This document shows, piece after piece, positions 1 to 32,000 of a stretch of 32,000 nt of DNA (within the stretch, counting starts at the first letter, position 1; each line of letters opens with the position of its first letter). Source of the DNA: Candidatus Saccharimonadota bacterium (GTDB taxonomy: Bacteria; Patescibacteriota; Gracilibacteria; BD1-5; UBA6164); assembly GCA_963677765.1 (NCBI GenBank), contig OY782392.1, positions 540,001-572,000 of the forward strand. The letters run 5' to 3'. The notes below the pieces were generated by a model. It saw nothing but the letters and a program-made list of their open reading frames with translations, searched no databases and was not told the DNA's origin. The position numbers were made by a program, and so were the translations under genes.

Positions 1-2832
1 AAATTCATAATATCAATTATTATCTGTAACTACAAATGATTCTTGATTTTCTTGTAGTTTTCAATCATTGTTACTATCTATATAGATTTTCCATCATGCC
101 ATATTTGAATTTCATGGAGAATTTATTCATTTTAGATATCATGATATACTTCAAGTTTCATTTTCACTCTTTGGGAGTGAATTAAAGTAACTTTGTATAT
201 CATATAATCAATCATTATTTGTATCTATAGAATATGATATACTATTATCTTCTTCATTTATTACTTTATTCCAGTTAATATCAAAATTTTGATTTTCTTT
301 TATTGTTTCTAGTTGATGTATGTAGATGCTTCATGTAGAATTATTTTGGAAGTCATCTACTAATATATTGTATGAATTATTTTCGGTTTTATTATCATCA
401 AAATCTATTTTAATATTTTCTCTTGATATATTAAATGTATCTGTTTGTCATAAGCTAGTACTTATTCACTCCAGTTTTGTATAATAGTCTCATCATGCTA
501 TCATTATGTCATACTTTTCTTCAGCTTTACCATTTATTTCTATACTTAGATTTTCTAGTTTTTGTGGTAAGTAGATTTGTTTCCAATTATTTTGTTCTAA
601 ATCACCATTTAATGGAACTAAAAGTCTAGCTCAAGGAATTTCTTCAAAAATATTTCAATCTTTATATCATACTTTATTACCATCTTTATCTTTTAATAAA
701 AAATCAGAATCTCATTTGAAAGTATATAATATATCAACTACATTAAATCAAATAGGAAAAGATTTATTTCAATTATTGTTGACTTCCTCTATATCCATTA
801 ATCATATCAATGTTAAACTTGTTTCATTAGCATCTTGTCTAGAGGTTATTTCAATATTTCAATCATTAATTTCTATATATTGTTCATATGATTTTAACTC
901 TCAATATTCCTCACTATTAAAAAATGGAAACTTAACTACATTATCATAAATATATATTCTATTTCATTCTATTCTATATGGAATCACAGAGTGTCAGGTA
1001 AGTTTTCAATCAGATTTTTTCCATTCAAAATTAAGTATATATTTTTTATCTGGATTATTTTTTAGAGTTTCAAGTATTTTATTTGGATTTAAAGTATGAA
1101 TTCAAATAATATTTTTAGGGATTCAATCATTATTTAATTGATAATTATTTTTATTGTATTGAGATAAATGAAAAGCAAATATATCTTCTAAATCATCACT
1201 ATATAAATCCCAATTTTGATTTAAATCAGAGCTAGGATTACTAATCAAATCATATATATTACCATTTTTTATTTTAGTGTATAATCTGTTATGATTTTGC
1301 TCTAGATAATTTGGTATATTTTTACTTTTAAAATAATCATCTTGATATTTTAATAATGATAAAGTTGATAATCAAAAACAACTACCATTATTTATAAATG
1401 TTATATCATTATTTAATCATAATGATTCATATGCTCTAATTCTTTTAATTTCTCATTTTTCAAATCAAGTTCAAGCTCTTGTATCAAAAGCTTTATCAAA
1501 TATTTTCCATTTTCTTCAATCATCTTCTGATATTTTATAAAAAGGTTTATTATATGTAAATTTTATATCATATGTTCAAGTTAGTATTCAAGTAGCTGGA
1601 CTTCAATTCACAAAATTAAACCCATAAGGATAAGGTTCAAATCATTCAAAAAGTGAAAAATCTATTTCCCATGTTTGGTTTGTAACATAGTCAACTACTT
1701 CACTTTCATTTCAATTATTGTCAGTTATTTTTGCTTTCCATATATAATTTCATTCTCATATATATGGTACTATAGTAGTTCATGTTCATGAAATAAGCTC
1801 TATACTATCAGTATATAAAGGAGTTTTTTCTCATTTTCTATATACTTCAAATACCATGTTATATTTAGTTGTTGTATCGTTTTGTATACTTGCTTCCAAT
1901 ATTATTCAACTTCAAGATTGAAACTTACCTATACTACTTCATAGTTCTATCTCTTCTTTTTCTAGAAGTGGTGATTTTATATATTGTTTTAAGTTTGTTG
2001 GTAATGGTATTTGTACTGATTCTGAACAGTATTTATTGTGATAATTACATAAATTATATCTTTCTTTATTTAACTCGAAACTAGGGTATATTTTTTGTGT
2101 ATTTGTCGATGCTGGTGATCAAGCCGCAGATCATGTTTTGTATAATTTTACAATACATTCATAGTTTATTTTATATTTATCTTGCAAGTCATCTATAGAT
2201 ATTAAACTACATCATCATGATCTAAAATATGTTGTAGAATAAACCCATCATCTTGTTTTTGCACTTTGAGATTTCCATATATCATCATAATAAATTTCAT
2301 TATCTACAATTTTTCAATTATTAAACAAATTTAATTTAACTAAATAATGCATAGGTTTTCAAAAAGTTGATATACTATAGTTAAAATCATCTATATTTAT
2401 TTTTCAAATTGTGAATACTGTTTTTCAATTATAGTTATTAATTCAACTAGAAGAATTGTATTCATAAGATATTTCAAAACTATCATTGTCTCTGATAATT
2501 TCTGTAATTTTAGAATATCTTCAATTTGAAAAGAAATCTCAATATGAATATTCATTACCTGTAGAAAAAAATACAATATCATTATAGTCTAATAAAATTC
2601 AGTCTTTATATATCTCAGTTCTTCCTATGTTTCTTGTTAGGTCTGCATTTTTTGTAAAATGCTTAATTTCATATCAATCATCATATTTATATGTTTCTGT
2701 GAATCTATAGTCAGTATAATTATTACTTTCATAGATAAAATCAGCATTTACATTTACAAAAAAAGACCAAAATAATAATAAAATACTAAAGCATCTTAAA
2801 AATATTTTGGTCTTTAACGGATTATTTTTCAT
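1..2832 (-). CDS. large secreted hypothetical protein, 3' end off window. Has a signal peptide, a candidate papain-fold Cys-His-Asp core, and C-terminal DxNxDG Ca-binding / SdrD-B-like motifs
   Basis: ATG at 2832..2830 is the first start after an in-frame TAA at 2892..2890. I checked every in-frame triplet from 2832 to 1: 944 codons with no TAA/TAG and about 60 TGA. N-terminus MKNNPLKTKIFLRCFSILLLFWSFFVNVNA looks like a signal peptide. No family recognised for the whole protein. Confidence 0.8.
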
Positions 2833-2923
2833 AACACTATTTGTTAATAATAAAAATAGCGGGAGATATAAAAAATATATTTGTTTTTTTTATTAATGCA
2901 ATATTAACTTTAATAAGAAATAA

Positions 2924-2950
2924 GAAAAAAGAAGCAAAATCTTTGCTTCT
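2924..2950 (-). terminator. intrinsic terminator downstream of pheS
   Basis: Perfect 9-bp stem agaagcaaa (2930-2938) / tttgcttct (2942-2950) with a 3-nt loop. On the minus strand it is followed by a T6 run (A-run 2924-2929). It lies directly after the pheS stop. Confidence 0.7.
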
Positions 2951-2951
2951 T

Positions 2952-28810: not shown

Positions 28811-28839
28811 GTTTATTTATACAATATAAAAACTAGGTT

Positions 28840-31800
28840 ATGAGATATACTAAATTTCAAAAATTTATATCAAGTTTTTTAATTTTTCTTATGCTTTGAA
28901 GCATAACTATTAGAATACCATTTTTAGAAATGGTACTTTATGCTGATTCAGATGATTTTTATGACCTAGTTTCTATTATTGTTGATGAAAATACATATGA
29001 TTGAGCAAAATCAGAAATAGATAGGTATTCAAAAGATATATCTTGAGTATTAGACAATACTAGAGTTGTTATTATGCCTGTTCCAGAAGATGTTACTGCA
29101 TATGAGATTGCTTCTATGAATGAAGCTTTATATTTTGATTGATATAAAGAGTTTTCAAATGTTTCTTTTGAATCTAAACTTGTATGAACAGTTTTGATTT
29201 GAAATATACCTTTGGCTTATGCTGAAAAAGATGGTCAAACTTCAAAAACTATACTTCCTTATACTGACTTTGAAAATAAGTCATATATTTATGATAAAAG
29301 TAAGTGATACTTTTCATATAATTCTGAAAATATTGAATGAATAAAGCCAGAAATATGGCATTGAGTTATTTCTCCAAATACTTGAGATGATAACTTGGAT
29401 TTAGATTATATAAAAAGTTATTTTGATAAAAATAATGATTATTATGAATCTAATTGAATCTATTCAAATACACAATTATCAATGAATTGAAAAGATTCAT
29501 CAATTTTATCGGATGAATATGAGCCATATGTTTTTTATTTTGATTCATTTAGAGAGTCTAGTTGATTAAATTATAATTCTTATATTTGATATAAATGATA
29601 CTTAGAAAATAAAGAAGATATAACATATAAGAGATTTACAAAAGAATTAGCTAATAAACTTAAATCTCAAATTTTGTGAAATTCTAATTCTCAAATTTCT
29701 GATTTGGCAAAAAAAGTAGATCCTAATATTAGTCAAGAGTTACTTGATTCAGTTGATAATTCTTTAGATAATGTTCCAGATATACAGTCTAGATATATAA
29801 TAAATAATTCTATAAAAAGTTTTGTTGAGACATTTTCTAAATGAGCTATATGAGAATTAAGAAAAAATGTTTACAATGCTGGTAGATATAATTATTGACA
29901 AGAAGTTAATGTAGACTTTATACCATATTTGATAACTATACTTGATGTTTTAAATGATGAAATTATTAAAGACTTTAATGATGACTTTGAAAATCAAATA
30001 GATGAATTAGTTAAGAATTGATTATCAAGAAATATTGCAGTACCTACTACTTATTATTATGAAGATGGTGATGAAAAAAGTACTTATACTAATTATTTGT
30101 TTTGAAATAAATGAACTAATTTAGTTTCAGCTGAACAATGTAGTATTTATAGATGAAGTTTAGATAATTGATGAACACTTGTAGAGGCTAATAGAGGTTT
30201 AAATATTAATAATATACAAGTTGATCAATGAGTTTTAGATTGATTGCCAATTAGTTGAACTCAAAAGGCTCAATGTTATTCAAGAGTACAAAGTTGAACA
30301 GCAATGAATTGAATAAATTGAATGAATACTCCATTTAATTTGGATCAAGATGCTTCTGCTGATTGAGAGCTTAAATTAAAAAACTCTAATTATAAAGGTT
30401 CTATAACACCATTGTTTGATATGGGTTGAGCCAAAGCTATAGATGATGAATCAAAAACAAATAATCCTTTTTATTGTATAGATAATAACTATTTATTATC
30501 AAATAAAGAAGAATATCTTTCAGAATTTTGGTGAGATTCAAGTTCTTGGGCTACTACTTATAAATTGGGTCAATATACATCAAATGTTGCATGATATTTT
30601 TGATGAATGCAATCATGGTCATGTAATAGTACAAATAATGCAATAAATAAGGTTTATAGTTTTACAGATACATTTGATCAAAATTATATTAATTTTGATT
30701 TTTGATTTTGTGAAGATAATAAAATATATTTAGATTGAGTTTTAGTTAAGTCATGAAGATATGAACAACTAACTTTTACTAATGATTATGATTATACTAG
30801 TGAGGTTTTTGATGAAGATTTATGAGAAAATGTTTTTTTAACTACTACATTTTCATGAGATACTTATGAGTGTGATGGTTATTATATTACTGATCCAGAC
30901 TGAAATGTTGTTGATAATTCATTATCATTACGGGAAATAAACACTTATAGATATAAATCTATACCATCTTATATAATGCATAAATCTCCTGAGCCAGAAG
31001 ATTTAACTACTCAATTGGATGTTAAAGTTACACCTAGTTTACCAGTTGATAAAGATAGATATATAGATTTCATTGCAGCTAATGGTTCTTATCAAAAAAT
31101 AAAATACCCATATTTATATAGATTAGAAATTGATGATAAATCAGATTTAAGTATAGAAAAAGTTTCTGAAGCTTTAGATGAAGTTTTAGATGAAAAATCA
31201 TATGAGATTAATCAAATTATACAAGAATCAATACCTAATTCATGATGAAGTACTTCTAATAATAATTCGACTTGAGAGACATGAAGTATAGCTGATTTTT
31301 TCTCGAGTTTATGAGATGTTTTTGATTGAAGTGTTGATAATCCATGAGAATATACTTCTTGATTAACAAATAATTCAAAGTTTATTGATAATCCAGAAAT
31401 TTATGAATTATTAAAAACATGAACTTATCCTCAGGCTAATTTTGATTTAAAACAATATTTAAAATCAAAATGAACTACTACATTAGAATTATGAGGTGAA
31501 TCAAAAACACTTAGTTATTATGATGTTTTAGTATTTGCTATATATTGGAATAATTTAAATTCAGTATCTGCAAAATATTGATTTGTTTTTGAAAATTATT
31601 TATCAGATCAAAATTTATGATGAGAAGAATATTTTTTACCAAAAAATAAATCTCAATATGAAATAGCTTATTTATGAGCTCCTGGATCAGTAACAGATAT
31701 GTATATATGACTAGATCCTGAATCTAAATGAGAAAATCCTTATTCAGATATTATTTGAAATAATCAAGATATATCAACTAAAATACTTTGATTAAATGTT

Positions 31801-32000
31801 TGAACTTCTAATTCTTATGATGAATGATTGTTTAAATGTGCTCCACCTGAATGAGTTCCTATTTGGGAATGGATTCCAGCAGTTATGTGTCGGTTATGAG
31901 AAATGTTACCTCCTACAATAAAAATTTCTGATTGAGCATGTTGACCTAGCCTTTTATCAAATGAAGAAAAAGAAGAGTTAGAACAATGTAATTGAGATGT
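28840..32000 (+). CDS. very large secreted/surface hypothetical protein (N-terminal signal or anchor, Cys-containing, Asn/Asp/Tyr/Gly-rich), 3' end off window
   Basis: ATG at 28840 follows an in-frame TAG at 28834-28836. All in-frame triplets to 32000 checked: at least 1053 codons with no TAA/TAG and about 69 TGA. Track ORF 30976..31245 is in frame. N-terminus MRYTKFQKFISSFLIFLMLGSITIRIPFLEMVLYA. No family recognised with confidence. Confidence 0.8.

Follow-up and report, generated by a model that had tools for sequence, protein, structure and literature searches.

The stretch of DNA under study (hereafter the window) comprises 32,000 nucleotides, i.e. positions 540,001 to 572,000 of contig OY782392.1 in GenBank assembly GCA_963677765.1, and has a guanine-plus-cytosine (GC) percentage of 25.3. 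It contains 38 genes covering 93.3% of the sequence, of which 36 are complete and two are cut by the window ends, and the codon TGA occurs in frame 464 times, spread over 36 of the 38 genes. Judging from its closest protein matches, the window derives from the chromosome of an uncultured bacterium with low GC from the Gracilibacteria, on the BD1-5 branch of the clade named JAEDAM01 in GTDB, within the Patescibacteria, or Candidate Phyla Radiation (CPR). The overall explanation favoured here, and held with very high confidence, is translation by NCBI genetic code 25 with UAA and UAG as sole terminators, with the addition that CGG is very probably read as tryptophan. The main features of the window are as follows.

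1–32000, no strand: whole window, 38 genes readable solely with TGA as a sense codon
4312–14462, + strand: ribosomal-protein operon with rplC, rplD, rplW, rplB, rpsS, rplV, rpsC, rplP, rpmC, rpsQ, rplN, rplX, rplE, rpsN, rpsH, rplF, rplR, rpsE and rplO, followed by secY

When the window was read with the bacterial translation table 11, just 14 open reading frames (ORFs) of at least 100 amino acids (aa) were obtained, and the reading consisted of fragments of 60–190 aa. Restriction of the stop codons to TAA and TAG in the same window scan gave ORFs of 1054, 963, 908 and 516 aa, and no comparable lengthening was seen in the window when TAA or TAG was freed as a sense codon instead of TGA. The gene set was accordingly composed of non-overlapping ORFs with TAA or TAG stops, adjusted by synteny with the relatives L093–L096. 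Within the 38 genes not a single in-frame TAA or TAG was found, and alignments with orthologs continued past C-terminal TGA codons, e.g. at aa 85 of the 88 aa of rpsS. The genes bearing TGA include those of essential ribosomal proteins, of SecY and of three aminoacyl-tRNA synthetases, and rplV is free of the codon. An initial annotation, made from the letters of the window, had described almost all genes as broken under the standard code and as uninterrupted with TGA as glycine, which agrees with the 93.3% of coding sequence and the ORF of 1054 aa against a longest table-11 ORF of 188 aa; its terminator counts for the 36 complete genes (30 TAA, 6 TAG and never TGA) were reproduced exactly.

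For 29 genes of the window, the protein was aligned to its ortholog in Escherichia coli K-12 with X in place of each TGA, and the amino acid encoded by TGA was read from these alignments. The 225 aligned TGA codons faced glycine in 154 cases, alanine in 14 and tryptophan in one, and with glycine making up 8.3% of the residues at aligned positions the binomial probability of such an accumulation is ~2e-110. The control codons behaved alike, as GGT faced glycine at 135 of 174 positions, GGA at 34 of 46, and TGG faced tryptophan at 36 of 53; UGG thus stays a tryptophan codon. Several of the TGA codons are located in glycine-bearing motifs:

6608–6610, + strand: TGA at the invariant glycine of ribosomal protein L2 (rplB), motif HPHGG-G-EG
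16106–16108 and 16112–16114, + strand: two TGA in the RuvB Walker A motif GPP-G-L-G-KT
17023–17028 and 17038–17040, + strand: three TGA in the P-loop of a phosphoribulokinase (PRK)/uridine-kinase-like protein with a CYTH domain
24770–24772, + strand: TGA in the ThiI PP-loop SG-G-FDS
15458–15460, − strand: TGA in the peptide deformylase (def) motif E-G-CLS
22244–22246, − strand: TGA in the leucyl-tRNA synthetase (LeuRS, leuS) motif PSGA-G-LHVGH

The codons in rplB, ruvB, the kinase gene, def and leuS are present and in frame at the coordinates which the initial annotation had cited for them, and the one in thiI is likewise present and in frame but was given there one nucleotide too far downstream (24771–24773).

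A comparison at the codon level was made with 80 relatives, i.e. the best ribosomal protein S8 matches among the species representatives of GTDB. At the sites where the window has TGA, these relatives carried TGA in 48%, GGT in 18%, GGA in 17%, GGG in 3.5% and GGC in 1.4% of cases, the four GGN codons together accounting for 40.5%. Conversely, the TGA codons of the relatives aligned to TGA, GGT and GGA of the window, and this interchange of TGA and GGN shows TGA to be one of the synonymous codons for glycine. At the TGG sites of the window, the relatives had TGA in 6 of 1443 cases. When all 64 codons were scanned against the relatives in this way, TGA and CGG alone were flagged; a reassignment of AGC, a codon that stood out in the E. 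coli comparison (n=10), was rejected as its behaviour in the relatives was normal.

Ten of the proteins were in addition searched against Pfam twice, with TGA translated as glycine and as tryptophan, and in every TGA-containing family the bit score was higher with glycine, for example:

tRNA-synt_2d: 309 bits with glycine, 268 with tryptophan
SecY: 311 bits with glycine, 251 with tryptophan
Pep_deformylase: 148 bits with glycine, 126 with tryptophan
RuvB_N: 246 bits with glycine, 209 with tryptophan
ThiI: 204 bits with glycine, 179 with tryptophan

The Peptidase_M23 and Rhodanese matches were obtained with the glycine translation only, and the PRK match lost its P-loop half under the tryptophan translation.

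On the combined evidence of ORF structure, alignment to E. coli glycines and interchange with GGN, UGA almost certainly encodes glycine throughout the window, as had been claimed in the initial annotation. Two observations count against this assignment: about 30% of the aligned TGA codons face a residue other than glycine in E. coli, with GGT and GGA being similar in this respect (22–26%), and no tRNA gene is present in the window, nor any tRNA with the anticodon UCA in the ribosomal-operon loci of the 80 relatives. Under the standard code, the TGA codons would be true stops, and the window would be strewn with pseudogenes, result from faulty sequencing, or be subject to selenocysteine incorporation or readthrough. 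Nothing beyond the presence of in-frame TGA speaks for such a reading, which we consider scarcely conceivable in view of the 464 TGA that lie in frame across 36 of the 38 genes, with zero TAA or TAG, of sites that are kept as TGA or GGN across 80 species, and of Pfam matches that extend over the full length of the families. Code 4, in which TGA is tryptophan, is used by the low-GC Mycoplasmatales, the Entomoplasmatales and several endosymbionts, among them those of insects, and has in common with the window UGA as sense in a small AT-rich genome. At the level of ORFs, a sense TGA together with 25% GC is equally compatible with it, and since the ORF-level signature is identical, gene callers use table 4 on such sequences. 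The sole public record of the ThiI protein of the window (P0001; gene at 24203–25699, + strand) is such a table-4 translation, which departs from the glycine translation at the 27 TGA positions and nowhere else, each of them being given as tryptophan, and 89 of its 120 best homologs have tryptophan in at least five of the TGA columns of the window and are thus of table-4 style. Code 4 is nevertheless highly improbable for the window, as tryptophan was met at 1 and glycine at 154 of the 225 aligned codons, TGA is exchanged for GGN and not for TGG among the relatives, the tryptophan reading lowers the Pfam score of every TGA-containing family and abolishes two domain matches, and all of the relatives are Gracilibacteria. 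The earlier exclusion of code 4, the expectation that TGA columns would align mainly to glycine with improved domain matches, and the judgement that any standard-code annotation of the window is invalid are all borne out, and the public table-4 record of ThiI is equally wrong.

With UGA read as glycine, the codon would be expected to be served by a dedicated tRNA-Gly whose anticodon is UCA, and release factor 2 (RF2, prfB) to have been lost; both steps are taken from the published biology of the clade and not from the window, as decoding by tRNA-Gly(UCA) and loss of RF2 have been described there (PMC8629427; preprint 10.64898/2026.05.24.727570). An Rfam scan of the window gave no match at the gathering score. 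Metagenome contigs were scanned for a tRNA pattern combining the UCA anticodon with G1-C72, C2-G71, G3-C70 and U73, i.e. the glycine identity set, and among the 120 stretches returned by this pattern scan ARAGORN identified a tRNA(UCA) on 38 (within L099–L212, e.g. L119 at 6358–6431). These 38 genes comprise 15 distinct sequences, 11 of which are variants of one family of 74 nt (one of 77 nt with a 3′ CCA). The contigs had a GC content of 29–40% in 36 of the 38 cases, and on the 17 that were at least 5 kb long, long ORFs appeared only with TGA as a sense codon. The gene was usually located ca. 300 nt upstream of a cluster of tRNA-Ala, -Tyr, -Arg and -Glu (in part also -Leu) genes, and one of the tRNAs matched the general tRNA family RF00005 with a score of 62.7 bits. 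The expected UGA decoder thus exists in organisms of this kind, on contigs that are not linked to the genome of the window.

In terms of usage, TGA is the commonest glycine codon of the window (TGA 464, GGT 220, GGA 59, GGG 10, GGC 0) and represents 62% of all glycine codons. Its share was 33% (79/236) in the 19 ribosomal-protein genes versus 74% (385/517) in the other genes, a difference suggesting that UGA is selected against, at the level of translation, where expression is high. In the aligned genes of several low-GC relatives TGA made up ~80% of the glycine codons, so its share in the window is unexceptional for the clade, and in high-GC relatives it was near-absent. Five codons, GGC, CGC, CGA, CCC and TCC, are never used among the 9917 codons of the window, and GGG (10), CGT (5), TGC (4) and CTC (2) are near-absent.

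The relatives also place the window within the clade. Nearly all of the 80 best S8 matches, with identities of up to 90%, bear either the label Candidatus Gracilibacteria or an unspecific Patescibacteria or ‘Peribacteria’ label of a metagenome-assembled genome; HOT-871 and GN02-872, both oral taxa, are among them, as is Candidatus Altimarinus. The label SR1 or Absconditabacteria was found on none of these 80 matches, and the best named homologs of ThiI were Gracilibacteria as well. On the basis of these labels, the window belongs, within the clade that uses table 25, with Gracilibacteria/BD1-5 and not with SR1, by which the earlier placement in SR1/Gracilibacteria within the CPR stands as to the clade and is narrowed to one of its sides. 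The gene order from def to the gene at the downstream end of the window is conserved in L093–L096. In GTDB, the class JAEDAM01 consists of the orders Absconditabacterales and BD1-5 and is taken to use table 25 (gTranslate preprint 10.64898/2026.05.24.727570).

The other codon flagged by the scan, CGG, belongs to an arginine box that is hardly used in the window, where CGT occurs five times, CGG four times and CGA and CGC not at all, versus 355 AGA. The four CGG codons are distributed over def, thiI and the gene at 28840–31998 (+ strand), which encodes the N-terminus of a giant protein of ~4200 aa and is syntenic in L093–L096:

15542–15544, − strand: CGG at def aa 69; among 26 relatives CGG in 22, TGG in 4 and an arginine codon in 0
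24893–24895, + strand: CGG at thiI aa 231; tryptophan in E. coli and gammaproteobacterial ThiI, homologs split between W and ‘R’
30931–30933, + strand: CGG at giant-protein aa 698; TGG in L093 and L094, CAA in a further relative
31891–31893, + strand: CGG at giant-protein aa 1018; CGG in L093, L094 and L096, TGG in a further relative

Each of the four sites has TGG in at least one relative, and at none of them was AGA, AGG or a CGN codon other than CGG found in any relative. The thiI columns were taken from an alignment of 122 rows (the window, E. coli and 120 homologs), in which the column of aa 231 contained 76 W, 27 N and 14 ‘R’, the last corresponding to CGG in the DNA of three relatives; the same split was seen in the column of ThiI aa 47 (W 72, Y 33, ‘R’ 13). 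Relatives also have CGG where the window has TGG, namely at the invariant tryptophan of LeuRS GWDAFG, aa 47 of ThiI and aa 307 of SerRS, and in further columns in which 64 and 49 other loci have TGG, S3 and SecY columns being among these CGG/TGG sites. All CGG columns were drawn from the non-overlapping gene set, as shadow ORFs lengthen once TGA is sense. Among the low-GC loci, no CGG column was paired mostly with an arginine codon. In the higher-GC relatives L033, L035, L061, L063, L071 and L079, on the other hand, CGA and CGG align with AGA, i.e. they are arginine codons. The few low-GC relatives that have any CGA (L088, L018 and L051) align it with AGA as well (in L088 across 45 loci), and with CGA unused in the window it is CGG only that appears to be reassigned.

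From these alignments, CGG very probably encodes tryptophan in the lineage of the window, and its decoding would presumably require a tRNA with the anticodon CCG. The earlier statement that conserved tryptophan is still TGG is correct for the tryptophan codons of sodB and incomplete for the window, in which four further tryptophan positions are very probably CGG. Several points weigh against this assignment of CGG: it is drawn from four codons of the window, two of them in poorly conserved proteins or loops; E. coli Def has arginine opposite def aa 69; the site at giant-protein aa 698 faces CAA in one relative; and no tRNA(CCG) was found in the window, in the ribosomal-operon loci of the 80 relatives or on the scanned metagenome contigs with tRNA(UCA). 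Solved Def and ThiI structures, by which neither the def nor the thiI site is conserved in the larger protein families, speak neither for nor against it. An alternative is a plain table 25, in which CGG would still be arginine or be unassigned and the alternation of CGG and TGG would represent real replacement of arginine and tryptophan at tolerant sites. The low number of CGG codons and the arginine of E. coli Def, in a loop that is variable in the solved deformylases, agree with it, CGA and CGG are clearly arginine in the six higher-GC relatives, and some Gracilibacteria have been reported to read CGG as arginine (PMC8629427). We regard it as improbable, however, because the CGG of the low-GC relatives never has AGA as majority partner and matches TGG at invariant tryptophan sites. 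Moreover, under an AT pressure that has led to 355 AGA against 4 CGG, an arginine CGG would be expected to turn into AGA, which no relative has at the four sites, and L033 and L035, with standard CGN usage, are among the four relatives that carry TGG at the def site.

Translation by code 25 with CGG as tryptophan can be set against the codes described previously. Code 25 itself, with UGA as glycine, is documented for SR1 and Gracilibacteria (Campbell et al. 2013; Rinke et al. 2013; both cited in PMC8629427), and the window shares with it UGA at conserved glycines, UGG as tryptophan, UAA and UAG as the only stops, the low GC content and the placement in Gracilibacteria; it does not differ in its usage of UGA but does so in CGG, which does not behave as an arginine codon. 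UGA as glycine is thus an already known and documented hallmark of the clade. For Absconditabacteria, Codetta has predicted an extended code in which CGA and CGG are tryptophan, and CGG as tryptophan was predicted also for “some Gracilibacteria” (Shulgina and Eddy 2021, PMC8629427), a group with which the alignment of CGG to tryptophan in the window is in agreement. In common with the extended SR1 code, the window has rare CGG (4 per 10,000 codons), AGA as the dominant arginine codon, CGG at tryptophan columns and low GC; it differs in lying on the Gracilibacteria/BD1-5 side, and in that CGA is unused and only CGG is apparently reassigned.

The CGG at def aa 69 shows a degree of conservation of its own. 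It is kept in 22 of 26 species, while synonymous sites in the codons around it are free to vary and saturated, and for the window's remaining GC-rich minor codons the share of relatives that keep them is just 7–31%. At thiI aa 231, in contrast, TGG and CGG flip among close relatives. Such strong conservation is unexpected if CGG is freely synonymous with TGG under AT pressure, which is a further point against the tryptophan assignment in its simple form. Selection might favour a rare or slow codon here, a constraint might act at the nucleotide level, or CGG might not be fully equivalent to UGG. A more specific proposal, which we put forward as speculative and rather unlikely, is that the CGN box has been split in the BD1-5 lineage, with CGG alone being tryptophan and CGA unused or unassigned, and that some of the CGG codons, most clearly the one at def 69, are held by selection. 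If this were true, CGG would not be simply equivalent to UGG, and could act as a slow regulatory codon or, being fixed in an essential gene, could hold the reassigned tRNA in place.

For annotation, the consequence is that a table-11 treatment of the window is useless, that table-4 pipelines would place tryptophan at 464 glycine positions within 32 kb, and that a plain table 25 would place arginine at four probable tryptophan positions. As UGA is documented as glycine in the clade, nothing new follows from this codon. What is added is independent comparative support at codon level for the tentative published idea that CGG as tryptophan extends from SR1 to Gracilibacteria, the indication that CGG can be tryptophan without CGA, and the conserved CGG codon in def.

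The ribosomal-protein operon deviates at three points in its gene content. Between rpsE and rplO the rpmD gene for L30 is missing (12631–12658); L30 is as a rule missing in CPR bacteria, and the gap fits an origin in that group. Upstream of rplC the rpsJ gene is absent, and pheS is located there on the opposite strand (4020–4311). At its downstream end the operon stops after secY, without adk, map, infA and rpmJ (14462–15205).

Two large proteins, encoded at 28840–31998 (+ strand, the giant-protein N-terminus) and 1–2832 (− strand), gave no Pfam match, have N-termini resembling signal peptides and contain 6.4–6.6% TGA codons; for the homolog of the giant protein in L093, a weak FG-GAP match is on record. 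The gene at 16906–18090 (+ strand) encodes a domain of the phosphoribulokinase/uridine-kinase family fused to a CYTH domain, and adjoins ruvB and a gene of the FemAB family in an arrangement that is kept in L093. Two small genes in tandem, at 22796–23167 and 23171–23509 (both − strand), match T4SS_pilin/TrbC-VirB2, and between these paralogs TGA in the one faces GGN in the other (LYGLYGGF and LYGLWGGF).

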